From a bacterium (GTDB lineage: Bacteria > Patescibacteriota > Minisyncoccia > Phycocordibacterales > UBA6899): a stretch of DNA of 64,000 nt. Location of the stretch: assembly GCA_021851895.1 (NCBI GenBank), contig JAJZQJ010000002.1, positions 5,046-69,045 on the forward strand. Reading direction: 5' to 3'. Below are positions 17,038-45,144 of the stretch, piece after piece (the first letter of the stretch is position 1; every line of letters starts with the position of its first letter). Position numbers and translations under genes: made by a program. A model generated the notes under the pieces. The model searched no databases and was not told where the DNA came from. It worked only from the letters and a program-made list of their open reading frames with translations.

Positions 17038-17049
17038 AGAAAACATTAA

Positions 17050-17228: not shown

Positions 17229-17247
17229 CGAATCCTGCCGCCGGAGC
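17229..17247 (+). repeat. att-like core, copy 2 (direct repeat of the tRNA 3' end, 210 bp downstream)
   Basis: 19/19 identity with 17019-17037. The flanks differ, so this is not a full tRNA copy. Confidence 0.6.
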
Positions 17248-17252
17248 CAATC

Positions 17253-17287
17253 AAAAAACGAGACACGAAGGTGCCTCGTTTTTTTGC
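17253..17287. terminator. bidirectional intrinsic terminator
   Basis: AAAAAACGAGACAC-GAAG-GTGCCTCGTTTTTTT. Confidence 0.55.
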
Positions 17288-17327
17288 TTTCACGATAATT
17301 CGAGATAAAGGATCTGTGATAGAGAAC

Positions 17328-17540
17328 CTACTTCTTTGTGAGCTGCATGGAGATGTATGCGAGATACACCGCTGCGATACCAACGAGACCATAGACGATT
17401 CTTGCGATCATCGACATCGCGCCAAAAAGGGTAGCGACGAGATCGAAATCGAACAGGGCGACCAGTCCCCAGTTCAGTCCACCGACAATGACAAGCACGA
17501 TAGCAAGCCAGTCGAGCGTATTGAGTTTGTTCATGTTGTT
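17328..17540 (-). CDS. DUF378-like small membrane protein
   Basis: 70 aa from MNNMNKLN.. onward. WLAIVLVIVGGLNWGLVALF is typical of the DUF378 family. The track's N-terminal extension to 17669 is doubtful. Confidence 0.55.
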   Translation of the reverse strand, partial: NNMNKLNTLDWLAIVLVIVGGLNWGLVALFDFDLVATLFGAMSMIARIVYGLVGIAAVYLAYISMQLTKK

Positions 17541-17656
17541 CATTATTAATGCACGAGTGCGCTCTTCGACCACATGCGCATTAGTATGATTATAACACGA
17601 AAGTATAGTATGGTAATATAATGATATCGTTAACATGGTATTAACATAGAGATCGT

Positions 17657-18118
17657 ATGTCATTTCCACTTCTCGACAGCATCGGTTTATTTCTCATGCT
17701 CTCAGGTTTCATCATCGGGCTCGGTGCAGTGACGGTCATCGACATCCATGGCTTTCTTGGTCGCACATCCTCATATTGGACTGAGGCGACCACGCGAACG
17801 CATAAAGTTACGAAGCCCATGATATGGGCCGGCATCTTTCTCTCTATCGTCGGTGGCGTCATATTCTATCGCAATCAGCCGTTCGCGGGGATTCCTGCGG
17901 CGCATGCGCTCATCGTCGTCGCGCTCCTCTTTAATGGATATTTCCTGTCCTGCAAAGTGAGTCCATTTCTCTTAGCTCGTGAGAGCGAAGGGAAGTCGGG
18001 GGAATTACTCCCGAGTGCATGGCAGCATAAGATCATGGTGAGCCTCATCGTGTCTGACATCGGCTGGTGGGGAGGACTCGTTCTCCTCGTTGTGTACCTC
18101 ACGAGTCGTTTATCATAA
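17657..18118 (+). CDS. hypothetical membrane protein (4 TM)
   Basis: 153 aa with four hydrophobic helices. No motif recognized. Confidence 0.4.
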   Translation: MSFPLLDSIGLFLMLSGFIIGLGAVTVIDIHGFLGRTSSYWTEATTRTHKVTKPMIWAGIFLSIVGGVIFYRNQPFAGIPAAHALIVVALLFNGYFLSCKVSPFLLARESEGKSGELLPSAWQHKIMVSLIVSDIGWWGGLVLLVVYLTSRLS

Positions 18119-18212
18119 ATGGGTGCCAGCGCGTAGGCACAAGTGCTTCGTGTATTGCGCTCCTCTTGTCCGTCGCTCTTTCTGTTCCGCTGCGGGAGTA
18201 TTTATGTGTAAT

Positions 18213-18242
18213 GAAAAACCGGGCGCAAATTGCGCGCCCGGA
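18213..18242 (-). terminator. intrinsic terminator for the GC-rich membrane-protein gene
   Basis: CCGGGCGC-AAATT-GCGCGCCCGG preceded by A5 (a T-run on the minus strand). Confidence 0.65.
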
Positions 18243-18257
18243 GTTTATTCTAATGTG

Positions 18258-20135
18258 CTATTTCTTCTGCTCACGGAGCAGCTGGAGCATCTTCTGCTTC
18301 TCGGCGTCCGTGAGGTTTTCCATCTGACTCGTCGCTTCACGAGCGTCCTTGATGACCGCGTCGGCCTCCGTGGAGACTTTGTGCTGGGCATCGAAGGACT
18401 CTTGGACCTTCGTCTTCGCGAGGGTGAGACCCTGGCACTTGATCGAGTTCAGTGCGATGACCGACTCGTCGTTCTCGAGGAACGATACGGTCACGATGTC
18501 GCCGACGTGGAGCACAGGCGCGACGCGCACGGCTTCATCGGTTCCGCGGGTGGCGAACAGGCGATCGTTCACGCCCTCAAGCGTGAAGTAGAAGGTCTTG
18601 TTCCCGCCGATGACGGTGTCGCCGGTGCGCGTGATGCGCACGGGACCGAGGGTCTTCTTCGCGAGCGCCTTGCCACTCGCCGCGACGGCGTTGCCGTCGC
18701 TCGCGAGCTTCTGGCGGTACGACTCGAGCGCGGTCGTGAGATCACTCTCGATGACGAGCGTATTCACGTTCTCCATAGAGACGAGCGCGACCTTCTGGAA
18801 GAAGGACTGCTCGTTGCTCACGATAGGGATGACCCAGGTGGCCTTGCCGAAGATGTTGTATGGCGTCGGGTGCGTGGGGTGCCAGGTCGTCGCATTCGCG
18901 CCGAGCTGACTGCTCACGGCCTTCATCGCACCGTCTTCGGTCGTGCCACGCATCGGATAGTACTCGGCGCCAGCGATACCCTTGCGGGAGTCGATCAGCA
19001 TGAGTCCGATGAGGGAATCATCCTTCGCATTACTGCTCGTGATGCCGACGCTCCAGTAGAGCTTGTCGCCGAGCTTCACGAGCCACAGGTCGCCCGCAGG
19101 CTTCACGCGGTCATGGTCGTCCCAATTGATGAAACCATGGACGAGGTTGCCCCAGTCGACGATCTGTTCCTTCGCTTGCGCCATGGGGCGGACGCGATCG
19201 ATCCACGAGGGAATCGTGCCGTCCTGCTTGTACTCGCAAGAACCGGTTTCGGGATCAGCGATGATGACGCCGACGGTCTGTTCGCCCCAGAAGCCGATGG
19301 TGGGAGTCATGACGCCGTACGTGTAGTACGGATGCCAGTTCTCGTCCACCTCGAAGGTGACGTCACTTCGGTTCGCCCAGGGAATGTCCTTGTAGACCTT
19401 GCGGTCCAGGTTGTCCCCGAAGACCGCGTTCGGTGTGTACCGAATGGCGAACTTCTTGCCGAGGGCATCCTCGGTGACGAGGGTCGCCTCACGGTTCGGG
19501 TCCTGCGCCGACACCCTGATGTAGCCGGGGATGATGTTGTCGTTGAGACTCGCGAAGTCCGTTGCGTAGTCGAGGGGGAAGATCCACCAGAGTTCGCCGC
19601 GGACCTCTTGGACGGCTCCGTGTTCGAAATCGACATCGAACAGCGACCCGAGGGATTTCCCGTCGGCATTCTGTCCGAGCGCTTTCTTCGCGATGGTGTG
19701 CGCCGTTGCCGCGGAGACCAAGCGGATGTGCTTGGTGTCGGCGAGGGGCACGTTTTCGTTGAAGCGCTGCTTCATCGAGACGTTCCCGATCACGTTGCGG
19801 TACGCTTCCGCATTGAACATCGGACTTGTGCCGATGGCCATGCCGAAGAGGCCGACGAGGATGAGGACGGGGACGGCAATCCCCGCGTGGGGATGGAAGT
19901 CGAAGTATTCGTCTTTTTCGAAGCTGAAGACGAGGCCGAGCACCGCGCCGGTGAGGACGAGGAGCCAGGACTCCGCGAAGCGGAACCCGACCGTGGGGAG
20001 GGCGAAGTACCCGCCGCAGAGGACGAGCAGGAAGGAGAGGCTGCCAGCGGTGATGTACCGCCACGGCGTCTTGATCTTCGCGAGGCCGATGGTGACGATC
20101 GCTGCGATCGCGGCCAGGATGGCGAGGGTGAGCAT
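18258..20135 (-). CDS. large membrane protein: N-terminal TM helices + about 520-aa extracytoplasmic domain (strongly GC-rich gene)
   Basis: 625 aa with hydrophobic N-terminal helices, then a soluble domain with balanced composition and a charged coiled-coil tail. The opposite-strand 695-aa ORF is R/D/G-rich, typical of an antisense artefact. Confidence 0.55.
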   Translation of the reverse strand: MLTLAILAAIAAIVTIGLAKIKTPWRYITAGSLSFLLVLCGGYFALPTVGFRFAESWLLVLTGAVLGLVFSFEKDEYFDFHPHAGIAVPVLILVGLFGMAIGTSPMFNAEAYRNVIGNVSMKQRFNENVPLADTKHIRLVSAATAHTIAKKALGQNADGKSLGSLFDVDFEHGAVQEVRGELWWIFPLDYATDFASLNDNIIPGYIRVSAQDPNREATLVTEDALGKKFAIRYTPNAVFGDNLDRKVYKDIPWANRSDVTFEVDENWHPYYTYGVMTPTIGFWGEQTVGVIIADPETGSCEYKQDGTIPSWIDRVRPMAQAKEQIVDWGNLVHGFINWDDHDRVKPAGDLWLVKLGDKLYWSVGITSSNAKDDSLIGLMLIDSRKGIAGAEYYPMRGTTEDGAMKAVSSQLGANATTWHPTHPTPYNIFGKATWVIPIVSNEQSFFQKVALVSMENVNTLVIESDLTTALESYRQKLASDGNAVAASGKALAKKTLGPVRITRTGDTVIGGNKTFYFTLEGVNDRLFATRGTDEAVRVAPVLHVGDIVTVSFLENDESVIALNSIKCQGLTLAKTKVQESFDAQHKVSTEADAVIKDAREATSQMENLTDAEKQKMLQLLREQKK

Positions 20136-20380
20136 GTATGCTCCTGTGTTGTGCCGGATATCGATCCGGTGTGTTGAAGGGAAAGAGCTTCGGCTGTCCG
20201 AAACTGGGAGATATTATACAATATTTTTATAGATTTGTAAATAGTATCGATGTGAGGGTTTTTCTCGCTTAAAATATTCCCCGGAACTTGCGAAAAGACA
20301 TCCTGATCTGACACGGAAGGGTCCTATCGGAGTTTTCGCATGTCCTGTGCGGAAAACTGAGAAATTTAGAGCTGAATTTA

Positions 20381-22568: not shown

Positions 22569-24083
22569 ATGTCTACAAAAACATTCAATCAAGAGGAGCT
22601 CAATAAAGTACTTTGGGCAGCGGCTGATTCCTCTCGAGGTAAGGTTGACGCAAGTATCTATAAGGATTATGTGCTCACGATGCTCTTCTTCAAGTACATG
22701 AGTGATCTGCATAAGAAGACTTATGCAGAGTACCTTAAGCGTTTCGACGGAGATATTGATCGCGTTGAGGAGAAAATGCGTCTCGACCGCTTTGTGCTCC
22801 CCGAGACAGCAACTTTTGAAGCAGTATATGCACAGATAGAGAAGGACAACATCGGCGAAATCATCAATATCGCGCTTAAAGAGGTGGAGGCTGAGAACAG
22901 GGGGAAGCTTGATAAGGTCTTTGCCGTAGACTTCAATTCCGAAAACACCCTCGGTAAGCTCGATGAGCGTAATCGTATGCTGCGTAATTTGCTCAAAGAT
23001 TTCGCAAAGGTGGACTTCAGTGAGGCTGATGAAGACATTGTGGGAAATGCATACATGTATATGATTGAGCGCTTTGGCTCAGCGGCAGGGAAGAAAGCAG
23101 GAGAGTTCTTTACCCCCCGCTCTATCGCTTCGCTCGTCGCACGTCTTGCTGCACCAAAAGCAGGAGATCGTATCGCCGATATGGCCTGTGGGTCAGGCGG
23201 CCTCCTTTTGCTCGCAGGTGAGGAAGTCGAGAAGACTGGCTCAAAGAATTATGCTCTCTATGGTCAAGAGCTTACTGGTACTACCTACCAGCTCGCGCGT
23301 ATGAACATGTTCCTACATCAGAAGGATTCGGCACGCATTGAATGGGGCGATACGCTCAATAGTCCGCTCCTTGTGGAGAACGATCAGCTCATGCGCTTTG
23401 ACGTCTCTGTTGCAAATCCTCCCTTCTCGCTCAAGAAGTGGGGTGCAGAGAATGCAGAGAATGATAAGTACAATCGTTTCTGGCGCGGAATACCACCGAA
23501 GGACAAAGGAGACTATGCCTTCGTAACCCATATGGTTGAAACCACGAAGCCAAAGTCGGGTCGTGGTGTTATCGTCGTGCCCCATGGAGTGCTCTTCCGT
23601 GGTGGAGCGGAAGGGAGAATTCGTGAAGCATTGCTCAAGGAAAATATCATCGATGCAGTCATTGGGCTTCCTGCTGGGCTTTTCCAAACGACAGGTATCC
23701 CCGTCGCAATCCTTATATTCGATCGCTCTCGAGAAGTGGGGGGTGCGAACGAATCTCGCAAAGATGTGCTCTTCATTGAAGCCTCGAAAGAATTCAAGGC
23801 AGGCAAAGCGCAAAGTACCCTCACTGATGAGAATGCGGCAAAGATTATTGATACGTACAAGGGGAGAAAAGAAATCGAAAAGTTCTCTCGTAAAGTCTCG
23901 CTTAAAGAGATCGAGGAGGAAAATGACTTTAATCTAAATATCACTCGATATGTCGATACCTTTGAAGAGGAGGATGAAATTGATATTTCTGCAAATCTCA
24001 AAGAGTTATCTAAGGTAAACGCTGAATTGAAGGAGGTCGAGAAGAAGATGGAGGAGTATTTAAAGATGCTTAATATCGCATAA
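22569..24083 (+). CDS. hsdM: type I R-M N6-adenine DNA methyltransferase subunit
   Basis: 504 aa. N-terminal HsdM helical domain, AdoMet motif I (DMACGSGGLLL) and motif IV NPPF (VANPPFS). Confidence 0.9.
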   Translation: MSTKTFNQEELNKVLWAAADSSRGKVDASIYKDYVLTMLFFKYMSDLHKKTYAEYLKRFDGDIDRVEEKMRLDRFVLPETATFEAVYAQIEKDNIGEIINIALKEVEAENRGKLDKVFAVDFNSENTLGKLDERNRMLRNLLKDFAKVDFSEADEDIVGNAYMYMIERFGSAAGKKAGEFFTPRSIASLVARLAAPKAGDRIADMACGSGGLLLLAGEEVEKTGSKNYALYGQELTGTTYQLARMNMFLHQKDSARIEWGDTLNSPLLVENDQLMRFDVSVANPPFSLKKWGAENAENDKYNRFWRGIPPKDKGDYAFVTHMVETTKPKSGRGVIVVPHGVLFRGGAEGRIREALLKENIIDAVIGLPAGLFQTTGIPVAILIFDRSREVGGANESRKDVLFIEASKEFKAGKAQSTLTDENAAKIIDTYKGRKEIEKFSRKVSLKEIEEENDFNLNITRYVDTFEEEDEIDISANLKELSKVNAELKEVEKKMEEYLKMLNIA

Positions 24084-24086
24084 AAC

Positions 24087-25100
24087 ATGGCAAAGGTAAA
24101 ACAGGCAACAAAAACTTGGGAAGAGCTCGAGAAATTAAGACTCGAATTCGAACAGAGGCTCTTTCCGCAGGTTAAAGCAAAAATTGATGAAATAGAAGCC
24201 TATAGAGATACTCTTCTCGATGACAATGAAAAGAAGTCATTAAGCACGACTATTTCTGAGTTGTCGGATAAAATCACCGAACTAGAGGAGTCCTTCAAAG
24301 AAAAATTCAGTGACATAGAAACTTTGCATGAGAGGATTTTTCACGGGGATGAGGAGAATGATGCGTTGTCTGATCAGGTTGATGAGTTTGTAAATAAAGC
24401 AAAAGGAGAGCTTGCTGGCTTGAATACAAAACACGCTGATATTAATAGGTATCATGAAAAGGTATTTGGTGAGAAGGATGCTTCTGGAAAGTATTCAGGT
24501 GGGCTCGCGTCAGAGCTAGAAAAGTATGGAAAGAAGTATGAAGCCCTATTTGGCCAAATAGAAGGCTTATTGCCAGGTGCTACAAGTGCTGGTCTTGCTC
24601 AGGCATTTAGCGATAAGGTTGATGAATACAAGAAAGAGGCTTCAAAGTGGAAGTGGATTACTTTTGGCTCCTTGTGTATCGCAGTCGTTCTTAGTATCGT
24701 CTCATACTGGCTTGATCGTGGTCAGGTGCTCTCGTTTTCATTTGTCATGATCCGGCTTGCACAGAAATTGCCTTTTGTTTTGTTTGCAGTTTGGCTGGTT
24801 GTATATGCAAATAATCGACGTGCAGAAAATAAAAAACTCGAAGAGTCATATAAGCATAAAGAGGTAATCGCGAGATCTTTTGTGGGCTATAGGAAGCAAA
24901 TTGAGGATCTCGATCTCGACACTGAAGATAATAATTTACTTATTTCGCTCACGACAGGATTACTTGATGCCATCATGATCAATTCATCAGATTTCTTAAC
25001 AGCGACTGGCGAGAAGAGTCCGATTCATGAAATGCTTGATAAAGCTGCAGATACTGCGAGTGCCGCAGTATCTAGCCCTGTAATTTCTATAAAGAAATAA
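24087..25100 (+). CDS. coiled-coil / 2-TM protein of unknown function embedded between hsdM and hsdS (candidate membrane effector)
   Basis: 337 aa. About 190 aa of heptad-rich helical N-terminus, then two adjacent TM helices (WKWITFGSLCIAVVLSIVSYWL; LPFVLFAVWLVVYANN) and about 100 aa of C-terminus. ATG 3 nt after the hsdM stop and 3 nt before the hsdS start. Confidence 0.6.
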   Translation: MAKVKQATKTWEELEKLRLEFEQRLFPQVKAKIDEIEAYRDTLLDDNEKKSLSTTISELSDKITELEESFKEKFSDIETLHERIFHGDEENDALSDQVDEFVNKAKGELAGLNTKHADINRYHEKVFGEKDASGKYSGGLASELEKYGKKYEALFGQIEGLLPGATSAGLAQAFSDKVDEYKKEASKWKWITFGSLCIAVVLSIVSYWLDRGQVLSFSFVMIRLAQKLPFVLFAVWLVVYANNRRAENKKLEESYKHKEVIARSFVGYRKQIEDLDLDTEDNNLLISLTTGLLDAIMINSSDFLTATGEKSPIHEMLDKAADTASAAVSSPVISIKK

Positions 25101-25103
25101 TTC

Positions 25104-26246
25104 ATGGAACTAGCGAAACAAAAAATTCCGTCCACTTGGCAAAAACTTCGCCTCGGTGATTGTCTGACAATAAAGCATGGTAAATCACAAAAAGAAATTG
25201 AAGTAGTCGATGGTAAATATCCCATCCTTGCTTCAGGTGGAGTTATAGGGAGAACTAATACTCCACTATATAGTAAGCCATCAGTATTAATCGGTAGAAA
25301 AGGGACGATTGATAAGCCTAGATACATGGATACTCCTTTTTGGACGGTAGATACGCTATTTTACAGTCAGGTAAAGGACAACTCTGTACCCAAGTATTTG
25401 TTTTATGTATTCAATTTCATTGACTGGTATGAATACAATGAGGCTTCGGGAGTCCCAAGTCTTTCGTCGAGCACTATTTCCTCAATAGAAGTTCTACTTC
25501 CTCCTCTCCCTGAACAAAACCGCATCGTTTCGGTTCTTGAAACCTGGGATAAGGCAATTGAAAAACTTTCTCGAAAGATTGAAATTAAGAAGGAAATCAA
25601 GAGGGGATTGATGCGGGGCTTACTGACTGGCAAGCTCAGGGTAACAGGTCGCGGTGGGAGTTGGGATGTCTATAAAATCGGTGACATAATTGTTGAAAGT
25701 CGAATTCCTTCCAAGAGTTTTGATGTTACTAAAAGGATTAGTGTGCGACTAAATATGAATGGCGTAGAGAGTAGGGAAGTGCGAGGTACTGAGGCTGAGG
25801 GCTCGACCATGTTTTTCGTTAGGAGCGCTGGTCAGTTTGTTTATGGAAAGCAAAATTTATATAAGGGAGCGATGGGGATTATTCCAGAACAGCTTAATGG
25901 TTATGAGAGCACTCAAGATATCCCCTCTTTTGATTTCAGGGAAGGATTTGATTCTAAGTGGTTCTTGTATTTCATGGGCAGAGAAAGTTTTTATTCGCAA
26001 CTTGAAGATATTGCAACTGGTTCAGGGTCCAAGCGAATTCATCCACGAGATTTATTTAAAATTAAGATTCGGGTACCTAAATATGACGAACAGTTAGCAA
26101 TTGCATCTGTGCTATCGGTTGCCGATTCGGAAATCCGCATACTTACCCAAAAACAGCAGTGTCTAGAGAGGCAGAAAAAGTTTCTCCTTAATAATCTTGT
26201 CACTGGAAAAATTCGTACTCCAGAAAACCTACAATATGCTAAATAA
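25104..26246 (+). CDS. hsdS: type I R-M specificity subunit (two TRDs)
   Basis: 380 aa. Two TRDs separated and followed by conserved regions (LLPPLPEQNRIVSVLE...; VPKYDEQLAIASVL...). Confidence 0.85.
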   Translation: MELAKQKIPSTWQKLRLGDCLTIKHGKSQKEIEVVDGKYPILASGGVIGRTNTPLYSKPSVLIGRKGTIDKPRYMDTPFWTVDTLFYSQVKDNSVPKYLFYVFNFIDWYEYNEASGVPSLSSSTISSIEVLLPPLPEQNRIVSVLETWDKAIEKLSRKIEIKKEIKRGLMRGLLTGKLRVTGRGGSWDVYKIGDIIVESRIPSKSFDVTKRISVRLNMNGVESREVRGTEAEGSTMFFVRSAGQFVYGKQNLYKGAMGIIPEQLNGYESTQDIPSFDFREGFDSKWFLYFMGRESFYSQLEDIATGSGSKRIHPRDLFKIKIRVPKYDEQLAIASVLSVADSEIRILTQKQQCLERQKKFLLNNLVTGKIRTPENLQYAK

Positions 26247-29200
26247 AGTCCATTTTGATGAAGCGCGTCAGGTACAGTTGCCCGCAGTAGAGTTGCTCAT
26301 AAGCCTTGGTTATGAGTATATTTCGGTGAGCGAGGCGCTGCGTGAGCGTGGGGGAGATGAACGTAACGTAATACTGCGTGATATCGCGCGTGCGAAGTTA
26401 ATGGAAATTAATAGCTATGAGCTCGATGGTGAAAAGATGCAATTCACTCCTCGCGATGTGAATGAGGCTATTGATGAGCTCGAAAACCTTCCATTTGAGG
26501 GACTTCAGAAGACCGCACAAAACATTTACCGCATGATCATGCCGACGAGTGGCGGGAAGACTGTCGAGGTGCGTAAGGGAGACTCGAAAAACTTTCGTTT
26601 CATCGATTTTGCGGAACCCCATAATAATGCTTTTCATGTGACGGTAGAATATACCGTCGTTGGTAAAGAAGAGATCCGCCCGGATATCGTTTGTTTTGTG
26701 AATGGTTTTCCTATTGCGGTTATCGAAAGCAAGAAGCATACGGTATCGGTGGAAGAAGCACTAGAGCAGATGGTGCGCAATCAAGGCGTCGAATATGCTC
26801 CAAAACTATATACCTTTGCACAGATACTTGTGGGCTCAAATGGTACTGATTTCCGCTATGGTACAACCGGCACTGGCGAGAAATTTTATGCAGTCTGGAA
26901 AGAAAAGCCTAGAGAGAAAGGAGAGGCGGATCTTGAGCGACTTGATGCGCGCGTAAAGGAATTAATTGCTCAGCCGATTGCCGTAGGTGTGTATCAAGAA
27001 TTGCTCAATGACTTGAGCCGAGGCCAATCACATCATGAGCAACTTTGCGATCGCCCTATTACTGCGCAAGATCGCAGTATCGTCGCACTCTTTACGCCAG
27101 AGCGCTTACTTGATCTCACAAAGCACTTTGTGATTTTCGATGCAATGGAGAAGAAGATTGCACGCTATCAGCAGTATTTTGCTATTGAGAAGATGCGTCG
27201 CCGTGTGATGGAGAAGGAGGCCGCACCTGAGGGCGGCGAGCGTCGCCGTGGCGGTATCGTCTGGCATACACAAGGGTCTGGAAAGTCGCTGACGATGGTG
27301 CTCTTCGTGAAGGCGCTTATAGAGGATGAGCATATTAAGAATCCTCGTGTCATTATTGTTACCGACCGCAGAGATCTTGATAGGCAAATCAAGGGAACGT
27401 TTGAGAATTGTGGACTCAAGAAGGACGTCGTCCAGGCAAAGACGGGACAGCACCTGCTTGATCTTATTCAAGAGAAGAATCTTGGAGTCATCACCACTCT
27501 CGTGCAAAAGTTTGAGAGCGTCGCGAAGAAGCGTGAAGATTTTGTTGACCCCGATGAGAACATCTTTGTGCTCATCGATGAGGCGCATCGTACCCACGGC
27601 GGTATGGCGAGCCTTGAGATGTCCCGCACAATACCGAATGCTTGCTATATTGCCTTTACGGGTACGCCACTCATGCGCGAGGAGAAGGAGAGCTGGAGGC
27701 GTTTTGGGGCATATATTGACAAATATACCATTGATGACGCCGTGCTCGATGGTAATGTGCTCCCACTGATCTATGAGGGACGCTTTGTGCCGCTTGTGCA
27801 GAATGCAAAGAAGATTGATGAGCTTGTTGATCGTGTAAAAGAGCGTGCAATACACAAATACCAGTCCAATGGTGAAGAAGATAAACGCGAAGAGGAGTCG
27901 GTAAATCGCGAAGCGTTGGTCAATAATCCACAGCGCCTCCGTGAAATAGTCCATGATATTGAATCGCATTATAAGATGGAGCTGCAGGGGACAGGACTTA
28001 AGGCGCAAGTTGTTGCTCCCAGCAAATTTGCGGCAGTAAAAATGCAACAAATGTTTCTCGAGAGCGGGTTGGTGAAGTCTGCGGTCGTTGTCTCAGATGA
28101 GTCGGGGATTGTTCATGAGGATGACTACCGAAGGCAGGAAGTTGTCGATTTCTTGGATAAGATAAAAGATACTCATTCGAGTATTGAAGAATATGAGAAA
28201 GAAGTGATTCGCGACTTCAAGGATAATGCAGATGGTGTCGAAGTGCTTATCGTTGTCCATAAGCTCCTCACGGGTTTTGATGCCCCAAGAAATACCGTGC
28301 TTTACCTCGCAAAGAGTTTGAGGGACCATGACTTACTTCAAGCAATTGCTCGTGTGAACAGGCTTTGCGATAAGGGCAAGAAGCAGAAAACATCAGGGTA
28401 TATTATTGATTATTCCGAGAATGCACAACACCTCAAGAGTGCGATGCAGCTCTTTGGGAACTACGAGGAGGACGATGTGCACGGCACGCTTGTGGACGTG
28501 GGAGAGAAGATGCAGGAACTGGCACAAGCATATGCGGCCATACATGATATTTTTCGTGGCGTGCATGGGGCGAAGACGGTAGAACCGTTCATGGAGGTGC
28601 TCAAGGCAGAGGATACACGCGTGGAATTTAATGCCGCAGTAAATACATACACAAAGCTCTTCAGTGAATGTCTTGCGTTGAAGGATTTCAATGAGAACTT
28701 CAAAGATATTGATCTGTATAAGCGAGAGCTCAGAAAGTTCGTCGAATTAAGAAAGCTTTCGCGGTTCAGATACGGCGAGCGAACGGACTTTAATGAGTAC
28801 AAATTTGCGTTGATGCGTATCCTTGATCAGTATGTTGATACCGAAGGAGGCGTGGAGCGTCTTACTGAAAAGATTGATGTTCGCGATATTGCTCAGGTGC
28901 GTAAGGCTGTTGAAGAGATCGTAGATAGCAAGGAGAAGGCTGAGGCGATTGCGACACAGGTGAATAAGACTATTCACGACCGTGAGGCTGAGGATCCTGT
29001 CTACTATAAGTCACTCTCGGAACGAGTTGAGGAAATTATACGAGCGATGCGAGAGGGGAGAATGCAAGACCTCGTTGCCCTTGAAGGGCTCGAAGAATTG
29101 CTCATTGCCGCAAATGAGAAGAAGCAGGCCTCAGTACCAAGTCAGATTGAAGCTGAACATGGAGCAGATCTATTTTATCGAAATTTACTTCCACATTTTG

Positions 29201-29454
29201 AGCGTTTTCATCTTATCTCAGATCAAGAGGTGATGCTTTCATTGAGTGTCTTTAAGATTATTAAAGAATTTGCAATAGTCGATTTTGAGCATAACGTCGA
29301 TGTACAGCGCCGCATGCGTAGTGCGCTTGATGACTACTTGTATGATGGTTTCCCTTCCGAGTGGAATGTTTCGCTATCTTCGAGAGAAAGGGGAGACATA
29401 GTTGCCGCAATGGTTGAACTCGCAAAACACAATCATGAGCTCTTTAGTGCATAA
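26236..29454 (+). CDS. hsdR: type I R-M restriction subunit (helicase/endonuclease)
   Basis: About 1072 aa. N-terminal nuclease region, SF2 helicase motifs (GSGKSLTM Walker A; DEAH: LIDEAHRTHGG; motif VI QAIARVNR). The ATG at 26236 overlaps the hsdS stop. Confidence 0.9.
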   Translation: MLNKVHFDEARQVQLPAVELLISLGYEYISVSEALRERGGDERNVILRDIARAKLMEINSYELDGEKMQFTPRDVNEAIDELENLPFEGLQKTAQNIYRMIMPTSGGKTVEVRKGDSKNFRFIDFAEPHNNAFHVTVEYTVVGKEEIRPDIVCFVNGFPIAVIESKKHTVSVEEALEQMVRNQGVEYAPKLYTFAQILVGSNGTDFRYGTTGTGEKFYAVWKEKPREKGEADLERLDARVKELIAQPIAVGVYQELLNDLSRGQSHHEQLCDRPITAQDRSIVALFTPERLLDLTKHFVIFDAMEKKIARYQQYFAIEKMRRRVMEKEAAPEGGERRRGGIVWHTQGSGKSLTMVLFVKALIEDEHIKNPRVIIVTDRRDLDRQIKGTFENCGLKKDVVQAKTGQHLLDLIQEKNLGVITTLVQKFESVAKKREDFVDPDENIFVLIDEAHRTHGGMASLEMSRTIPNACYIAFTGTPLMREEKESWRRFGAYIDKYTIDDAVLDGNVLPLIYEGRFVPLVQNAKKIDELVDRVKERAIHKYQSNGEEDKREEESVNREALVNNPQRLREIVHDIESHYKMELQGTGLKAQVVAPSKFAAVKMQQMFLESGLVKSAVVVSDESGIVHEDDYRRQEVVDFLDKIKDTHSSIEEYEKEVIRDFKDNADGVEVLIVVHKLLTGFDAPRNTVLYLAKSLRDHDLLQAIARVNRLCDKGKKQKTSGYIIDYSENAQHLKSAMQLFGNYEEDDVHGTLVDVGEKMQELAQAYAAIHDIFRGVHGAKTVEPFMEVLKAEDTRVEFNAAVNTYTKLFSECLALKDFNENFKDIDLYKRELRKFVELRKLSRFRYGERTDFNEYKFALMRILDQYVDTEGGVERLTEKIDVRDIAQVRKAVEEIVDSKEKAEAIATQVNKTIHDREAEDPVYYKSLSERVEEIIRAMREGRMQDLVALEGLEELLIAANEKKQASVPSQIEAEHGADLFYRNLLPHFERFHLISDQEVMLSLSVFKIIKEFAIVDFEHNVDVQRRMRSALDDYLYDGFPSEWNVSLSSRERGDIVAAMVELAKHNHELFSA

Positions 29455-35881: not shown

Positions 35882-36690
35882 AAAATGGGGTCTGACCCCA
35901 TTTTTCTTCGTTTTGTGTGGTATAATGTTGAACACTTACTATATAATATATATTGCATATCAAATGGCACGTCAGCATCGCCTCGATCTCCCTGGTCGCG
36001 CATTCCACATCATGAATCGCGCAGTTGGACGCTTGCAGTTATTCAACAATCCTCAGGATTACTTATTGTTTTTAAAAGTCTTTAGGGAGACATGGGAAGT
36101 CAATCCCATCACTATCTATGCGTACTGCGTCATGCCAAATCACTTTCATGTGCTTGTACGTGCTCAGGCGGAAGGGGATATTTCCCGCTTCATGCAGCGC
36201 CTCGCGACGACCTATACTCGTAGGCTACATTTGAAAACAGGGACTGTGGGAGGTGGGCCAGTATTCAAAGGGCGTTATAAATCAATTCTTGTTGATGACG
36301 AATTTGTTTTTAATACGATGTTGCGATATGTGGAGCTGAACGCCGTGCGCGGACAACTCGTATCTCGAGCAGAAGAGTGGGAGTGGGGCAGTGCATACGC
36401 GAGAATAAAGAATGATATGGCATTTGCTCAGATCCTTGCTGAGTTGCCTGAAGAAATACCGAAATCGGCTGATGCCTATCTCGAGTGGTTGCGTGAAGAT
36501 GTTGAAGATCAATCCATTAAGCAAATTCGTGAGTCGATCAAGAAGGGCAGGCCGTATGGCCGCCCGAGTTGGGTCGAGCTCATGGCTGAAGAGCACAATC
36601 TTGCATATACAATGCGTGGCCAAGGTCGGCCAACTATTAAATAACATTACAACACACATTTTAACAAAAAATGGGGTCAGACCCCATTTT
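35882..36690 (+). mobile_element. REP-RAYT-REP unit: REP-associated tyrosine transposase flanked by inverted-repeat hairpins
   Basis: AAAATGGGGTCTGACCCCATTTT (35882-35905) and AAAAAATGGGGTCAGACCCCATTTT (36665-36690) bracket the IS200-like Y1 transposase gene. Confidence 0.65.
35964..36644 (+). CDS. REP-associated tyrosine transposase (IS200/IS605-like Y1 HuH transposase)
   Basis: HuH motif YAYCVMPNHFHVLV. Catalytic Y region (ELNAVRGQLV..EEWEWGS) is typical of RAYT. Confidence 0.8.
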   Translation: MARQHRLDLPGRAFHIMNRAVGRLQLFNNPQDYLLFLKVFRETWEVNPITIYAYCVMPNHFHVLVRAQAEGDISRFMQRLATTYTRRLHLKTGTVGGGPVFKGRYKSILVDDEFVFNTMLRYVELNAVRGQLVSRAEEWEWGSAYARIKNDMAFAQILAELPEEIPKSADAYLEWLREDVEDQSIKQIRESIKKGRPYGRPSWVELMAEEHNLAYTMRGQGRPTIK

Positions 36691-38850: not shown

Positions 38851-39336
38851 ATGATAAAACAAGCAGTATTTGCTGGCGGATGTTTTTGGGGTCTCGAGGA
38901 GCTCATTCGGAGACAAAAAGGGGTGGTGGATACCGAGGTTGGTTATGCGGGCGGGACAGAACCAGATCCTACGTATGAGCATCATCCTGGTTATGCTGAG
39001 TCGGTTGCGATCTCCTATGATGATACGAAGACCTCATATCGAGAATTACTCGATTTCTTCTTTCGCATACATGATCCAACAACACCGAACAGGCAAGGAG
39101 GAGACATCGGATCCTCTTATCGCTCTGCGATTTTCTATGGTGATGAGATAGAAAAGAAAGAGGCTGAAGATTTTATTCTGCTCGTCAATAAATCGGGGAG
39201 ATGGAAAGATCCCGTGGTGACAACGCTTGAACCCCTTACAAAATTTTACAAAGCAGAGGAGTATCACCAGGATTATCTCGAGAAGAATCCAGGCGGATAT
39301 ACTTGCCACTTTATTCGTTTTGGTAGCTATCTTTGA
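38851..39336 (+). CDS. msrA: peptide-methionine (S)-S-oxide reductase
   Basis: GGCFWG active-site motif. ATG lies 6 nt after TGCTATACT. The track's upstream extension is unlikely. Confidence 0.9.
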
Positions 39337-39722
39337 TCATGCAATTGAATGAACTTTCACCAGAAGAGCATAGGGTGATCATCGATAAAGGTACAGAGTT
39401 ACCTTTTAGTGGAGAATATGATCAGAAGTTCGACAGTGGCATCTATGTGTGTCGCCAATGTGATACGCCACTCTATCGTTCCGAAGATAAATTTGATGCA
39501 CATTGCGGTTGGCCTGCTTTTGATGCTGAAATAGAAGGAGCGATCATCCATCATCCTGATCCCGATGGAGAGCGCACGGAGATCGCGTGTGCTCGATGTG
39601 GGGCACATTTGGGCCACGTTTTTCTGAATGAGCAGTTCACTCCAAAGAACGTGCGCCATTGTGTGAATTCGTTGTCATTGAAATTCGTACCCGGCGGGGA
39701 TACTGAATCCCTTGCCAAGTAG
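39333..39722 (+). CDS. msrB: peptide-methionine (R)-S-oxide reductase
   Basis: CxxC...CxxC zinc site and RHCVNS catalytic motif. Overlaps the msrA stop (ATGA). Confidence 0.9.
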
Positions 39723-39748
39723 GTTGGAAGCCCTTACTCTTATGTCAT

Positions 39749-40150
39749 ATGCTGAAAGATTTCAAACAATTCTTGCTTCGTGGTAATGTCGTCGATCTTG
39801 CCGTCGGTGTCGTTGTCGGAGCTTCGTTTGGCGCCGTGGTCACTGCGCTTGTCGCTGATGTGCTCACACCCTTTATTGCGGCCATTGCAAAAGTGCCCGA
39901 TTTTTCTGGTATTGCATTCACGCTTAATGGGAGTAAGTTTCCCATCGGCCATTTCATGAATGCGCTTGTGTCATTTATCTTGGTATCGACCGCAGTATTC
40001 TTTTTTGTCGTTAAGCCGATGAATCATCTCATTGCTCGGTCCCGAAAGGAGGTTCCTGCTGATCCGACGACAAAAAAGTGCACAGAATGTCTTAGTGAGA
40101 TCCCTATTGAAGCAAAGCGATGTGCACATTGTGCACAGGTGCAAATATGA
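39749..40150 (+). CDS. mscL: large-conductance mechanosensitive channel with a C-terminal CxxC..CxxC extension
   Basis: N-terminal FKQFLLRGNVVDLAVGVVVGASFG. Two TM helices. The tail CTECLSEIPIEAKRCAHCAQ has 4 Cys. Confidence 0.85.
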   Translation: MLKDFKQFLLRGNVVDLAVGVVVGASFGAVVTALVADVLTPFIAAIAKVPDFSGIAFTLNGSKFPIGHFMNALVSFILVSTAVFFFVVKPMNHLIARSRKEVPADPTTKKCTECLSEIPIEAKRCAHCAQVQI

Positions 40151-40311
40151 AGAACAGGCATGATAAAAAACCGCTGCCAATGGCGGTTTTTTGCATTGCG
40201 CCAAATATTACAACACGAAATGGCATTCTGTCTTCATCACAAAAACTTCATCTGGGTGTCATAATATAATAAGCATGAGTAGCTCTCGTAGTTACTCCTT
40301 AATTTATATTT

Positions 40312-40890
40312 ATGCAGATCATCGTACTTATTTTACTCACGCTCTCAGGGGGACTTTCCTATATTGCAAAGAGCGCGCTTCCTGGTGACATGCTCTATCC
40401 TGTGAAGACGGGAATAGACGAACCCATCGAAGAGGCTTTGGCGTTTGGTCCTGAGGCGAAAAGTGCCGTTCACGTCAGTCATGCCCTTGAGCGCCTTTCC
40501 GAGATCGCACAGTTGCAATCAGCGGGTAAGCTTTCTCATCGTGACGAGGTCTTCACAAAATTCGCTTTTGAAAATGAACTCAGTAAAGTGAACGCTGATA
40601 TTGAAACATTAAATACAATAAAGAACTACCGAGTCGCACGAGAGGTCGAGAAGACCATGCGCGAAGGAATGCAAAGAAGTCCGGTGCTCGCGACACTCTA
40701 TGGCAATCAACAGGCAACGAGCAGCGATAAGAATATCGCTGACGGTGCTTTGGTGGAAGGTCAGCAGGATAGACCGACAACCCCTACGACTGCACCAGTG
40801 CTTTCCTCTACGACGAAATACGTCCCCAAGCTCTTACCGCCCCGAAATAATATCTCTCGCGGAGATGATAATGAGGAGGAAGACGACTAG
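40312..40890 (+). CDS. secreted hypothetical protein (DUF5667-like; acidic C-terminus)
   Basis: Signal peptide, then the LPGDMLYPVK motif. Low-complexity PTT and D/E tail. Confidence 0.4.
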   Translation: MQIIVLILLTLSGGLSYIAKSALPGDMLYPVKTGIDEPIEEALAFGPEAKSAVHVSHALERLSEIAQLQSAGKLSHRDEVFTKFAFENELSKVNADIETLNTIKNYRVAREVEKTMREGMQRSPVLATLYGNQQATSSDKNIADGALVEGQQDRPTTPTTAPVLSSTTKYVPKLLPPRNNISRGDDNEEEDD

Positions 40891-40902
40891 AAGTACATAC
40901 AC

Positions 40903-41481
40903 ATGAAAAAATATTTTCTTTCTATATTCACCATATTGTCCTTTGTGGGCTACGCGCTCTATGAGCGTCAGGTAAACCCTGCACCGCCACTTATCGACAA
41001 TACGATCACTGCAACTGCAGGAAATGGACGGCCAGGACGAACCCTGGCAGTAACTGATATTGTCACACCTCCTACGGTGACGACGAACACTCCGACGCCA
41101 GAGGGTAGGGTGCCAAAGCCTATTCCAACTCCAGTAACTCCCGTGACGAAGCCTGCGCCTACACCTGCGCCGACACCAGCACCCGTTGCTCTTGGAAAGT
41201 TTAAGGATGGCACATATGATGGAGACATTGCTGATGTTTATTATGGTCTCGTGCAGGTGCGCGCGGTCGTACAAGGCGGTAAGCTCGTCGATGTCGTCTG
41301 GCTTAATTATCCGCAGGATAACCAGACCTCACTCAGTAAGAGTGCCCGAGCACGTCCTCTATTGACCGCAGAAGCTATCGCAGCACAAGATGCTCAGGTG
41401 GATCGTGTTTCTGGTGCATCCGCAACGAGCGGCGGTTTCGTAGATTCTCTTGCGTCTGCATTGCTCCAGGCAAAAGCATAG
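40903..41481 (+). CDS. secreted FMN-binding domain protein (NqrC/RnfG-like FMN_bind)
   Basis: Signal/anchor, PT-rich linker, then GKFKDGTYDG...VQVRAVVQGGKLVDV...VDRVSGASATSGGF, typical of the FMN-binding domain (covalent flavinylation target). Confidence 0.65.
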   Translation: MKKYFLSIFTILSFVGYALYERQVNPAPPLIDNTITATAGNGRPGRTLAVTDIVTPPTVTTNTPTPEGRVPKPIPTPVTPVTKPAPTPAPTPAPVALGKFKDGTYDGDIADVYYGLVQVRAVVQGGKLVDVVWLNYPQDNQTSLSKSARARPLLTAEAIAAQDAQVDRVSGASATSGGFVDSLASALLQAKA

Positions 41482-41484
41482 CTT

Positions 41485-42231
41485 ATGAAAATGATGCGTA
41501 CCTACATGACGATGCCATGCATCGTCGAGATAGTCGACGCGAATGCTGATGTGAAAGACATCGAGGCAGTCTTTGATTATTTCCAACATACCGACGAGTC
41601 ATTCAGTTATTTCAAGCCCACAAGCGAGCTTTCCGCGATAAACTCAGGGAAGTTGAAGCTCGAGGATGCAAGCGCTGAAATGCGCGAGATCTTTGCGCTT
41701 TGCGAAAAGACCAAGGAGCAAACCGATGGATTCTTCGATATTCTGCAGCCTGACGGAACATATAACACCTCAGGGCTTGTGAAGGGACTCGCAGTGCATC
41801 GTGGCGCCGAGATCTTGCGCAGGCGCGGATACAAGAATTTTTGCGTTGAGATCGCAGGCGATATGGAGGTCTCTGGACACAATGAAGACGGTACGGATTG
41901 GGTGATCGGCATACAGAATCCATTCAATAGATACGAAGTCATCAAACGCGTCGCGTTGACCAATAAAGGTATCGCGACCTCTGGTGTTTATGAAAGAGGG
42001 AGCCATATTTATAATCCAAAGGACTGGACGGATAAGATCGAGAAGATCGTCGGACTTACGGTCATCGGCCCGAATGTTTATGAGGCGGATCGTTTTGCGA
42101 CCGCGTGCTATGCGATGGGGGAGGAAGGCATATACTTCCTCGAGTACCTCGATGGTTTCGAGGGCTATCTCGTCGGTAGTAATGGAATCGCGATGATGAC
42201 GACAGGATTCGCAAAATACATAATTACTTAA
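41485..42231 (+). CDS. apbE: FAD:protein FMN transferase (ApbE/Ftp family)
   Basis: 248 aa with ApbE-like motifs (ALTNKGIATSGVYERG; GLVKGLAV). Confidence 0.75.
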   Translation: MKMMRTYMTMPCIVEIVDANADVKDIEAVFDYFQHTDESFSYFKPTSELSAINSGKLKLEDASAEMREIFALCEKTKEQTDGFFDILQPDGTYNTSGLVKGLAVHRGAEILRRRGYKNFCVEIAGDMEVSGHNEDGTDWVIGIQNPFNRYEVIKRVALTNKGIATSGVYERGSHIYNPKDWTDKIEKIVGLTVIGPNVYEADRFATACYAMGEEGIYFLEYLDGFEGYLVGSNGIAMMTTGFAKYIIT

Positions 42232-42238
42232 CGAAACT

Positions 42239-43762
42239 ATGATGAAATTCATCGACAGTATTCTCAATCGTTTCACCATGTATAGGGTCGTGCTCTATTA
42301 TCTCATAGGGCTTTTCGTCATCGCACTCCTTTTTGGTGCGTTTGGGATAATAGCGTATAACCCCGCTTATCTGCTTGCAGAGGCAGCGTTCATCATCGCA
42401 GTGAGCTGGCTCACAAATGAGATCTTTTCGCGAGCGTTCAATGCACCAACAAACGTCGAGTCGGTGTATATCACCGCACTCATTTTGACGCTGCTCATCA
42501 CTCCTGGAAAACCTATGGAGATGATGGGTATGTACTTCTGGTCAGCAGTGATCGCGATGGCCGCAAAATATATCTTCGCGTTCAAGAAGCAGCATATATT
42601 CAATCCTGTCGCGATTGCCGCGGTCATCATGGCCTTCGCGACCAATCAGGTTGTCGATTGGTGGGTGGCCGGCACACCAGTGTTGTTTCCATTCGTATTC
42701 TTCGGTGGCTTGCTCATTGTGCGTAAGTTGAAGCGCACTGAAACGCTGGCCGCATTCTTTGGTGTTTTCGCGTTCGTGACCGTGGCAAATATCGTGATCA
42801 ATGGAGGCAACCTGCTCACAACAATAGTAAATGTGTTCTTACGCTCGCCGATCTTCTTCCTCGGTTTTGTGATGCTCACAGAGCCGCTTACCGCTCCGAC
42901 ACGCAAGATCCCTCGTATTGTTTATGGAGCACTTGTTGGTGCACTTGCGGTCCCGAGTGTGAAATACTTCGGCATGAATACGACGCCAGAACTCGCGCTC
43001 GTTATAGGAAACGTCTTTGCATTCAGTATCACTGCGCGAGATCGCGTCATGCTGTCTCTAAGGAAGGCACAGTCGCTCGCGCTGAATACTTATGAATTCA
43101 TCTTCCATCCTGATAGGGTGCCGAAGTTTCATCCGGGGCAATATATGGAATGGACGTTACCGCACGAGAAGAGCGATTCACGCGGCACGCGACGTTACTT
43201 CACGATCGCCTCATCGCCTACAGAGAAGGATTTCTTGCTTGGCATAAAAGCGTTCCCTGAAGGGAGTTCATACAAGAAAGCATTATTGCAGATGGGAGGA
43301 GGCGAGATGATGACTGCAGCACAGGTTGCTGGCGATTTCATTCTTCCGAAAGACCCAAAGAAGAAGCTCGTATTCATCGCAGGCGGTATCGGCATCACTC
43401 CATTTCGCAGTATGCTGAAGTATCTCGTCGACATGAATGAGCACCGCGATATTGTTGTCTTCTATTTGAATAAGGTTGCGGGGGAGATCGCATACACTGA
43501 TGTGCTCGAGGAGGCGTCAAATAAGCTCGGCATACGTACCGTCTTCGTGCTTACTGATCCCGGCGCGGCAAAGGGACATGTGTGGGCTGAGGGCGGACCT
43601 TGTGATGCGGCGATGATACAAAAGTACGTCCCTGATTTCAATGCACGAACATTTTATATATCTGGTCCTCATGGTATGGTCGATGCATTCGAGCGGATGC
43701 TCACGACAATGGGTGTTCCGAAAAAACAAGTCACCGTCGACTTCTTCCCAGGATTCGCTTAG
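42239..43762 (+). CDS. membrane-anchored FAD/NAD(P)-binding oxidoreductase (polytopic N-domain fused to ferredoxin-reductase-like domain)
   Basis: About 290-aa multi-TM N-domain. The C-domain has RRYFTIASSP (FAD RxYS) and FIAGGIGITPFRSM (NAD GxGxxP). Confidence 0.6.
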   Translation: MMKFIDSILNRFTMYRVVLYYLIGLFVIALLFGAFGIIAYNPAYLLAEAAFIIAVSWLTNEIFSRAFNAPTNVESVYITALILTLLITPGKPMEMMGMYFWSAVIAMAAKYIFAFKKQHIFNPVAIAAVIMAFATNQVVDWWVAGTPVLFPFVFFGGLLIVRKLKRTETLAAFFGVFAFVTVANIVINGGNLLTTIVNVFLRSPIFFLGFVMLTEPLTAPTRKIPRIVYGALVGALAVPSVKYFGMNTTPELALVIGNVFAFSITARDRVMLSLRKAQSLALNTYEFIFHPDRVPKFHPGQYMEWTLPHEKSDSRGTRRYFTIASSPTEKDFLLGIKAFPEGSSYKKALLQMGGGEMMTAAQVAGDFILPKDPKKKLVFIAGGIGITPFRSMLKYLVDMNEHRDIVVFYLNKVAGEIAYTDVLEEASNKLGIRTVFVLTDPGAAKGHVWAEGGPCDAAMIQKYVPDFNARTFYISGPHGMVDAFERMLTTMGVPKKQVTVDFFPGFA

Positions 43763-43768
43763 TTGTAA

Positions 43769-43797
43769 AAATTCGAGGCATTGCCTCGAATTTTTGT
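43769..43797 (+). terminator. intrinsic terminator TTCGAGGCA-TT-GCCTCGAA + T-run
   Basis: Perfect 9-bp stem followed by TTTTTG. Confidence 0.6.
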
Positions 43798-43817
43798 TCA
43801 GGTGTATACTATGAATA

Positions 43818-44316: not shown

Positions 44317-45144
44317 ATGAATAAAAGATATTTATCCTTTTTTGTTTTGATGGGCCTTGCGCTTGTTGCCGGCACAGCGCAAAAGGCGTCTGCGGAAGAT
44401 GTTACAACAGGAGATACTCGAGCACAAATCGGACATCACGAGGGCTTTGAGCGTGGACCTGGCATTTGGAAAACGCAAAATGGTGTATTTGGTGTGGTCA
44501 CGGGCGTGAGTGGCTCGGCGATCACGCTTGATGCAACGCAGCGACAGAACGTGGCTGCCGCAGTAAAGACATATACTGTGGACACTACTAATGCGAAGTT
44601 TATAAAAAACGGAGCAGAAAGTACACTCAGTGCGATCGCAATGGGCGACCATATCATGGTCCAGGGTACAGTGAATGGACAGAATGTGACTGCGACTCTC
44701 GTCCGCGACGGAATGGAATTTGGAGGCCCGCGAGAGGGTGTGGGGATGGCGACAGGTACGCGCGCGTCTCGTGGTCGTGGGATAGAGCATTCGGCAGTCG
44801 CAGGGCTTCCTACGGGTAATGGGCAGCCGGTCATTGCGGGAACAGTGACTGAAGTACGTGGGAATGCGGTGACGATCACCAATCGCGGGAATATCCCATA
44901 CACTGTTGACGTGACGAATGCGAATATTCAAAAAGCAGGAGCTACATCTACGGCTTCAGGTATTGCTGTCGGTGATAACGTGATTGTGCAGGGTTCAGTA
45001 TCAGGGACTACGATCACCGCAACTTCGTTTATCGATCGAGGGGTGATGCCAACAGTACAGGCCAACGCAAATGACGCACCTGCTCCGCAATCTCGCGTGG
45101 GGATATGGGGGCATGTGAAAAATTTCTTCAGTCGATTCTTCTAA
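44317..45144 (+). CDS. secreted protein with two internal about 70-aa repeats (DUF5666-like)
   Basis: Signal peptide. Repeat 1 VVTGVSGSAITLDAT...HIMVQGTVNGQNVTAT and repeat 2 VIAGTVTEVRGNAVTITN...NVIVQGSVSGTTITAT. Confidence 0.5.
   Translation: MNKRYLSFFVLMGLALVAGTAQKASAEDVTTGDTRAQIGHHEGFERGPGIWKTQNGVFGVVTGVSGSAITLDATQRQNVAAAVKTYTVDTTNAKFIKNGAESTLSAIAMGDHIMVQGTVNGQNVTATLVRDGMEFGGPREGVGMATGTRASRGRGIEHSAVAGLPTGNGQPVIAGTVTEVRGNAVTITNRGNIPYTVDVTNANIQKAGATSTASGIAVGDNVIVQGSVSGTTITATSFIDRGVMPTVQANANDAPAPQSRVGIWGHVKNFFSRFF

Follow-up and report, generated by a model that had tools for sequence, protein, structure and literature searches.

A three-gene flavin cassette and its conservation

The window analysed here, a stretch of 64,000 nucleotides from a bacterium of the Patescibacteriota (contig JAJZQJ010000002.1 of assembly GCA_021851895.1), contains a compact cassette of three genes, here called A, B and C, which encode an FMN_bind-domain protein, an ApbE-type flavin transferase and a membrane protein fused to an FNR-type module for the binding of flavin adenine dinucleotide (FAD) and NAD(P)H (Table 1). 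An initial annotation, made from the letters alone, had proposed these open reading frames together with their domains and their co-transcription. Indeed, the frames lie exactly where they had been placed, all on the forward strand, and the three domain assignments are borne out by Pfam, by profiles of structures in the Protein Data Bank (PDB) and by fold, which recover FMN_bind, ApbE, and a membrane domain joined to a FAD/NAD module. The inference of co-transcription also holds: as read from the sequence, 3 nt separate A from B and 7 nt separate B from C, and a hairpin of -18.4 kcal/mol (z=-6.2) directly follows the stop codon of C, with equally good folds in 0 of 200 shuffles. The tight spacing and the terminator thus support co-expression of A, B and C, and judging from this layout the cassette is an operon, the three genes of which are co-transcribed.

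Table 1. Features of the cassette and its surroundings, with positions in the window
Feature	Position	Strand	Description or basis
Gene A	40903-41481	+	Membrane-anchored FMN_bind protein, 192 aa, predicted ApbE substrate
N-terminal signal anchor of A, residues 4-20	40912-40962	+	YFLSIFTILSFVGYALY, MKK before it; hydropathy and flanking charge
Flavinylation motif D167-R-V-S-G-A-S173 of A	41401-41421	+	Read from sequence; aligns with SGAT of 8p2a_A
Gene B	41485-42231	+	Short leaderless ApbE (FAD:protein FMN transferase), 248 aa
Gene C	42239-43762	+	RnfD-like membrane domain fused to FNR module, 507 aa
Gene C, N-terminal domain, ~residues 1-268	42239-43042	+	10-helix NqrB/RnfD-fold membrane domain without flavinylation loop
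Gene C, C-terminal domain, ~residues 270-507	43046-43762	+	FNR-type FAD/NAD(P)H-binding module, without Fe-S domain
Hairpin with T-run	43763-43801	+	Likely intrinsic terminator of operon; RNA folding
DUF5667 gene, upstream of A	40312-40890	+	Pfam DUF5667, 43.6 bits

Gene order was assigned with iterated hidden Markov models over 80 related loci, on which the conservation counts rest; these loci were retained from more than 436 confirmed cassette loci in 185,579 species-representative genomes, scanned with one genome per species. They derive from many Patescibacteria lineages, Chloroflexota (Dictyobacter, Ktedonospora), Alphaproteobacteria (Mesorhizobium, Kaistia), Spirochaetota and Actinobacteria (Microbacteriaceae). 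The order FMN_bind, ApbE, RnfD-FNR fusion on the same strand is kept in 68 of the 80, with at least five phyla represented, and overlaps between the genes are frequent. Because order and orientation are kept to this extent, the arrangement is not one of chance, and we give practically no credence to the idea that the three genes are mere neighbours that do not work together. Full-length relatives of C number in the thousands, with 7744 matches among the scored candidates, the best 120 of which all measure about 505 aa at no less than 48% identity. The membrane domain alone recovers 294 clusters (50% identity) at E<=1e-30, the full-length members of which are nearly all of about 500 aa and therefore carry the membrane-FNR fusion. 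Three loci (L003, L016 and L058) have no ApbE between the FMN_bind and fusion genes, one of them (L016) with two tandem FMN_bind genes; their ApbE may be encoded elsewhere in the respective genomes.

The fused membrane protein and its FMN_bind partner

Protein C scores above the Pfam cutoff for NQR2_RnfD_RnfE (PF03116, 32.9 bits, cutoff 27.7) and matches NAD_binding_1 (PF00175) with 43.5 bits. An AlphaFold model, generated from an alignment of 16 sequences (mean pLDDT, the predicted local distance difference test score, of 80.6), contains ten membrane helices, with 10 Lys and Arg residues in the predicted inner loops versus 3 in the outer loops. This bias places both termini and the FNR domain of C in the cytoplasm, and a vestigial loop between transmembrane helices 5 and 6 (TM5-TM6) on the outside. 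The FNR motifs R-R-Y-F-T-I-A-S, G-G-I-G-I-T-P and S-G-P are invariant or nearly so across the family, and Pfam detects no Fe-S (Fer2) domain in C.

The initial annotation had raised the question of whether the membrane domain is NqrB/RnfD-like, and Pfam, the PDB profile search, the fold and an alignment to Escherichia coli RsxD all answer it affirmatively. In the profile search, RnfD (8ahx_D, E=1.2e-5) is aligned only from about residue 153 on, that is over the C-terminal half, and the full-length match to NqrB/RnfD needed fold comparison. The global hhalign alignment to RsxD is anchored by F-N-P, at residue 121 in both proteins, and by T-D-P-V-T, which pairs with T-E-P-L-T. Between these anchors, RsxD residues ~145-225 (about 80), including the flavinylation loop D-G-I-S-Q-A-T188-P-L, stand opposite gaps in C. 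Going by this alignment, the outer-face loop that carries covalent flavin mononucleotide (FMN) in RnfD is deleted in C, not merely mutated. A segment 'S-A-[S/T]-W-W' that most of the RnfD-like domains conserve (V-V-D-W-W in the window) was also considered as a vestigial flavinylation site and rejected, as it aligns with M-T-S-W-L of RsxD (~140-144) and not with the T188 loop.

Protein A reaches Pfam FMN_bind (PF04205) marginally, with 22.8 bits against a cutoff of 22. A profile built from 21 orthologues of A, on the other hand, matches the solved ApbE-type FMN-binding domain 8p2a_A with E=3e-22, with the S-G-A-T site aligned. The conserved Thr/Ser flavinylation motif that the initial annotation had suggested looking for is present in A, and the flavinylated position is Ser or Thr in 71 of 71 orthologues in the corresponding alignment column, so that S173 is the predicted site of FMN attachment. 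Two forms of the motif occur, D-x-[VI]-[ST]-G-A-[ST] in subtype 1 and [SA]-G-[SA]-S in subtype 2.

The same annotation had called the FMN_bind protein secreted. The domain assignment stands, while the term secreted does not, since the N-terminus consists of MKK and a 17-residue hydrophobic helix with no obvious cleavage site, to which a signal-anchored protein is a better fit. The pattern of MKK followed by a helix recurs among the orthologues of subtype 1; in its place, the A proteins of Actinobacteria carry a lipobox (...AGC). Between the anchor and its single FMN_bind domain, A carries a Pro/Thr-rich linker of ~97 residues. Aggregated, the N-in signal anchor, the linker and the actinobacterial lipoboxes suggest a topology in which the FMN_bind domain of A looks exported.

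A leaderless ApbE beside an exported-looking partner

Protein B is a clear ApbE, scoring 129 bits against Pfam ApbE (PF02424) and matching solved FAD:protein FMN transferases (ApbE/FmnB in the PDB) with E of about 1e-12. The segments T-S-G, S-H-I-x-N-P and A-D-x-x-x-T of B are conserved in the alignments to 4xgw_A and 7esa_A, and we take the corresponding ApbE segments (T-S-G, H-I-x-[DN]-P, A-D-x-x-x-T) to have catalytic and metal-binding roles. The start of B, M-T-M-P-C-I-V-E, is already the first beta-strand of the ApbE fold, and with the TAG stop of A only 3 nt ahead of the ATG of B (junction TAG CTT ATG, with A and B in the same frame in the window), the reading frame cannot be extended upstream. 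Neither a signal peptide nor a lipobox was detected on the ApbE in 68 of 68 cassettes, nor in the 120 nearest database relatives of B, which measure 235-281 aa and come from independent gene calls. Two subtypes can be told apart, a short one of ~247 aa that starts with M-K-x-T-R-x-x-M-G-M-P-x-T-V-E and a long one of ~290 aa that starts with F-E-A-I-G-T-x-W. Many ~248-aa leaderless relatives of B are named 'thiamine biosynthesis lipoprotein' by JGI, which looks like a carried-over misnomer considering that they have no lipobox.

ApbE proteins that act on periplasmic targets are reported to need periplasmic localisation, and the known cytoplasmic ApbEs serve cytoplasmic enzymes. The ApbE of Klebsiella pneumoniae is an example of the latter: like B it has no signal peptide, and its target is a soluble cytoplasmic fumarate reductase (reviewed in PMC12052999), whereas the sole candidate target in the cassette is equipped with a signal anchor, replaced in Actinobacteria by a lipobox. 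The paradox is sharpest in Microbacteriaceae (L075-L080; Agreia, Herbiconiux, Pseudolysinimonas, Schumannella), where A is of the lipoprotein type (...AGC) and the adjacent ~290-aa ApbE is leaderless. The issue is absent from the discussion in both Méheust 2021 (PMC8238504) and Huang 2024 (PMC10979944), the two papers that treat systems of this kind.

How could an exported domain be flavinylated by such an enzyme? One solution would be flavinylation in the cytoplasm, on the C-terminal motif of A before or during Sec translocation, followed by export of the flavinylated polypeptide. A tag of 7 residues, preferably at a terminus, can be modified by ApbE; still, we put this route forward tentatively and as rather unlikely. 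Other possible resolutions would be a cytoplasm-facing FMN_bind domain or an unconventional export of ApbE. Two further candidates were rejected. Tat export of pre-folded, flavinylated A would call for a twin-arginine motif, and none is conserved among the A orthologues: just 2 of 72 sequences have RR ahead of the helix. Readthrough into an A-B fusion that carries ApbE outside does not agree with the arrangement of the other loci, because the frames differ among them (gaps of 2, 3 or 5 nt, or overlap). No second ApbE or FMN_bind gene was found within the window.

The cytoplasm-facing alternative deserves a fuller account, as it would resolve the paradox by leaving the substrate where the enzyme is. 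The FMN_bind domain of A would be flavinylated and stay in the cytoplasm, its tethered FMN relaying single electrons from the FAD of the FNR module to the membrane domain of C; A would then take the role of the 2Fe-2S domain of NqrF, with the final acceptor in or at the membrane. Congruent with such an arrangement are the leaderless ApbE throughout the cassettes and among the nearest relatives of B, the precedent of cytoplasmic ApbEs serving cytoplasmic targets, and the lack in C of an Fe-S relay between FAD and membrane domain. However, bacteria of the Candidate Phyla Radiation (CPR, or Patescibacteria) are not known to make quinones, and the charges around the helix of A (MKK before, few after) favour an N-in, C-out orientation. 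The actinobacterial orthologues of A moreover have lipoprotein signal peptides, linkers rich in Pro and Thr are characteristic of extracytoplasmic tethers, the flavin pocket that the loop deletion leaves empty in C is on the outer face, and the published AlphaFold-multimer model puts the partner outside the cell (PMC10979944). Weighing both sides, we consider the cytoplasm-facing variant unlikely and continue with an FMN_bind domain of A that faces the outside.

Proposed electron path, known systems and neighbouring genes

Méheust 2021 defined NQR/RNF-like systems by a PF03116 + PF00175 fusion inside a flavinylation-associated cluster, meaning no more than five genes away from one for ApbE or FMN_bind (PMC8238504). 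The cassette has precisely this composition, with FMN_bind and ApbE genes immediately upstream of the fusion. In Huang 2024, the flavinylated Thr was stated not to be conserved in the subunit that resembles NqrB/RnfD, the NqrC/RnfG-like partner keeping its site; the covalent flavin of that partner was proposed to sample the flavin site of the NqrB/RnfD-like subunit, and in an AlphaFold-multimer model of the Ktedonobacter complex the partner's flavinylation site adjoins the NqrB-like flavin pocket (PMC10979944). The same site pattern is seen here, the loop with T188 being absent from C and the partner site being Ser or Thr without exception, so that the loop deletion both agrees with and sharpens the published statement. 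The architecture (NqrC/RnfG-like FMN_bind protein, ApbE and PF03116 + PF00175 fusion) is the same, with no difference in kind, and taxa are also common to both, namely CPR, Actinobacteria and Ktedonobacteria. By its domain composition, the cassette of the window is an ordinary further member of the published NQR/RNF-like system, itself known only from bioinformatics and AlphaFold models. What goes beyond the two papers (PMC8238504 and PMC10979944) is the loop deletion, the seemingly larger family and the leaderless ApbE in every cassette examined.

Regarding family size, the 2021 survey counted 127 NQR/RNF-like clusters in 31,910 genomes, mainly from Actinobacteria and CPR, and its pipeline discarded clusters for which neither a signal peptide nor a lipobox was predicted (PMC8238504). 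The hydrophobic N-terminal segment of A may or may not count as a signal peptide, and ApbE has no such segment. This filter may explain the low count as well as the reported under-representation in CPR, and the family was probably under-counted; set beside the more than 436 loci confirmed here among 185,579 genomes, it looks larger than 127 clusters.

For the function of the cassette, we adopt the hypothesis already published for the NQR/RNF-like system, in which electrons would pass from NAD(P)H to an extracytoplasmic flavoprotein; both papers propose that electrons move in one direction, from NAD(P)H to an acceptor outside the cytosol (PMC8238504, PMC10979944). We think it probable, with moderate confidence, that the cassette specifies a two-subunit transmembrane NAD(P)H dehydrogenase together with its maturation enzyme, related in simplified form to the NqrB/NqrC/NqrF portion of Na+-NQR. 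NAD(P)H would reduce FAD in the cytoplasmic FNR-type domain of C, from where electrons would cross the membrane via the NqrB/RnfD-fold domain, probably through a non-covalently bound flavin, to reach the FMN that B is predicted to attach to Ser173 of the membrane-anchored A. The tethered FMN probably docks in or beside the flavin pocket left vacant on the outer face of C, and would pass electrons on to an extracytoplasmic acceptor. For a CPR bacterium that has no respiratory chain, the cassette could in addition serve as a sink that re-oxidises NAD(P)H. We infer each electron-transfer step, the direction of flow, the topology of A and the acceptor, building on the domain identities, folds, motifs, operon structure, cassette conservation and loop deletion established here. 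As to direction, FNR modules and flavins can in principle be run backwards and RNF works both ways, so the reverse operation can be envisaged, with an extracellular donor or host-derived reductant feeding the reduction of cytoplasmic NAD(P)+. We regard it as very improbable, since an energy-coupling subunit for this uphill reaction is not evident and no donor-oxidising enzyme is linked to the cassette.

Several observations weigh against the outward path from NAD(P)H over C to A. Every cassette examined pairs a leaderless ApbE with an exported-looking FMN_bind partner, which the simple model does not account for. In the literature, we found no experimental paper with a biochemical characterisation of any family member, and the intermediate cofactor site in the membrane domain of C is only predicted. 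No acceptor gene is universally linked to the cassette among the neighbours of the loci compared, and in the window neither a metal transporter nor a two-component system lies beside it.

The likeness to Na+-NQR (NqrABCDEF) and RNF (RnfABCDGE) is evident, in that an NqrB/RnfD fold and an NqrF-like FAD/NADH module are united in C, NqrC/RnfG, the subunits with covalent FMN, have their counterpart in A, and ApbE is the maturation factor. Unlike these complexes, the cassette is devoid of NqrA, NqrD/E and RnfA/B/C/E, its FNR module has no 2Fe-2S domain and its RnfD-like domain no covalent FMN; the predicted path is one-way where theirs is semicircular, and no quinone or ferredoxin partner is evident. 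Gene calls over the 13.5 kb locus that surrounds the cassette include no other Rnf genes. A redox-driven 'mini-NQR' could nevertheless be imagined, in which flow through the NqrB-like domain is coupled to Na+ or H+ and energising the membrane is the main role. Such a pump appears distinctly improbable, as the cassette has neither NqrD/E nor RnfA/E, integral parts of the pumping complexes, and an electron acceptor would be needed all the same.

The initial annotation had likened the cassette to minimal Nqr/Rnf-like modules or to the extracellular electron transfer (EET) of Listeria. The former resemblance was upheld, while the latter was not. Listeria-type EET (Ndh2, EetA/EetB, PplA, FmnB, FmnA) shares a surface-tethered FMN_bind carrier that is flavinylated by ApbE, with NADH as the ultimate donor. 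There, however, electrons travel from Ndh2 via quinone to EetA/B, FmnB is an exported lipoprotein, FAD is secreted and PplA has FMN_bind domains in the plural, whereas A carries a single one. The cassette includes no Ndh2, EetA/B or quinone step and its ApbE is not exported; likewise, the gene calls for the 13.5 kb locus include no homologue of Ndh2 or EetA/B. Lacking the remaining defining subunits, the cassette is not an NQR, an RNF or a Listeria-type EET system. Reductases of the NOX/FRE type also fuse a membrane conduit to a C-terminal FNR domain, with haems in the place where the cassette would use flavins. SpNOX, a bacterial NADPH oxidase, and the MsrQ-like-FNR fusions described in Méheust 2021 have a di-haem six-helix conduit, as opposed to the flavin-type NqrB/RnfD fold with a separate flavinylated partner of the cassette.

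The genes that flank the cassette encode DUF5667, a small membrane protein, DUF5666 and MazG. The DUF5667 gene ends 12 nt before A, and a terminator-like site (40173-40187, after mscL) and a promoter-like site (40236-40265) lie upstream of it; from this promoter-like site and the short gap, the transcript may hold four genes here. DUF5667 precedes the cassette also in the close relatives L082 and L083, but in only 1 of 80 of the wider loci. In the lineage of the window the transcript may begin with this gene, which lies outside the conserved core. As core subunits, DUF5667, DUF5666 and the small membrane protein were rejected, with DUF5667 at 1 of 80 and DUF5666-like genes at 6 CPR loci, and they are lineage-specific at most. 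L082 and L083, from a Paceibacterota metagenome-assembled genome and a groundwater metagenome, share 75-77% identity in C and keep the upstream order msrA-msrB-mscL-DUF5667 (window 38851-40150) and the ~112-117-aa membrane protein downstream. A functional link of the cassette to msrA-msrB is not supported, because MsrA and MsrB have no signal peptides and a terminator-like site follows mscL.

Among the other loci, OmpR/PhoB-type two-component systems recur beside the cassette, with a histidine kinase in 22 loci and often directly adjacent, as do MacB-type permeases with adaptors, CopA-type P-type ATPases (6 loci) and VIT1 (4 loci). In some lineages the neighbouring genes offer a hint of Fe(III), Cu(II) or similar metals as acceptor. 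The two-component systems were uninformative as a clue to the signal, their best NCBIfam matches being generic OmpR/PhoB-type and all below the family cutoffs. Small DUF5666-like secreted proteins are encoded beside the cassette in 6 CPR loci (L004, L008, L018, L020, L031, L068), in 4 of the 6 at no more than 100 nt. In the window, a DUF5666 gene (44317-45144, +) lies ~550 nt downstream of C, and its product matches ExtJ, of a selenite/tellurite reduction operon, very weakly (NCBIfam, 16 bits, far below cutoff).

Elsewhere in the window, a tRNA gene (16707-17033, +) is split by an intron of group I (Rfam RF00028, 74.5 bits, 16736-16991). Run on the window as it stands, ARAGORN detects no tRNA and, with the intron excised, a cloverleaf from 16707, the anticodon of which depends on the exact splice site. 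The gene lies in a stretch (12000-20200) with a GC fraction of 0.54-0.60, compared with 0.45-0.51 elsewhere, which also holds a TldD/PmbA metallopeptidase pair (13430-16220) and an unannotated 695-aa reading frame (18090-20177) without Pfam match, and which may be foreign or mosaic DNA. A type I restriction R subunit, HsdR (26197-29454, +; SWI2_SNF2 and HSDR_N domains), adjoins the part lowest in GC (24000-26000, 0.40), and an IS200/IS605-type Y1 transposase gene (35913-36644, +; Pfam Y1_Tnp) is located a few kb upstream of the cassette.

As the idea of an NQR/RNF-like flavin path is already published, the locus adds an example rather than a new concept. If the proposed mechanism is right, the two-subunit module would nonetheless be among the simplest known routes for transmembrane electron transfer from NAD(P)H with flavins only, and it occurs commonly in CPR/Patescibacteria, a group about whose energy and redox metabolism little is understood. 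The leaderless ApbE in every cassette examined furthermore poses a testable question on the site of flavinylation. Should flavinylation indeed take place in the cytoplasm ahead of export, this would represent a maturation route that needs no secretion of FAD, and it could give minimal CPR cells, devoid of respiratory chains, an NAD(P)H-fed outlet for extracellular electrons, possibly towards a host or a mineral.

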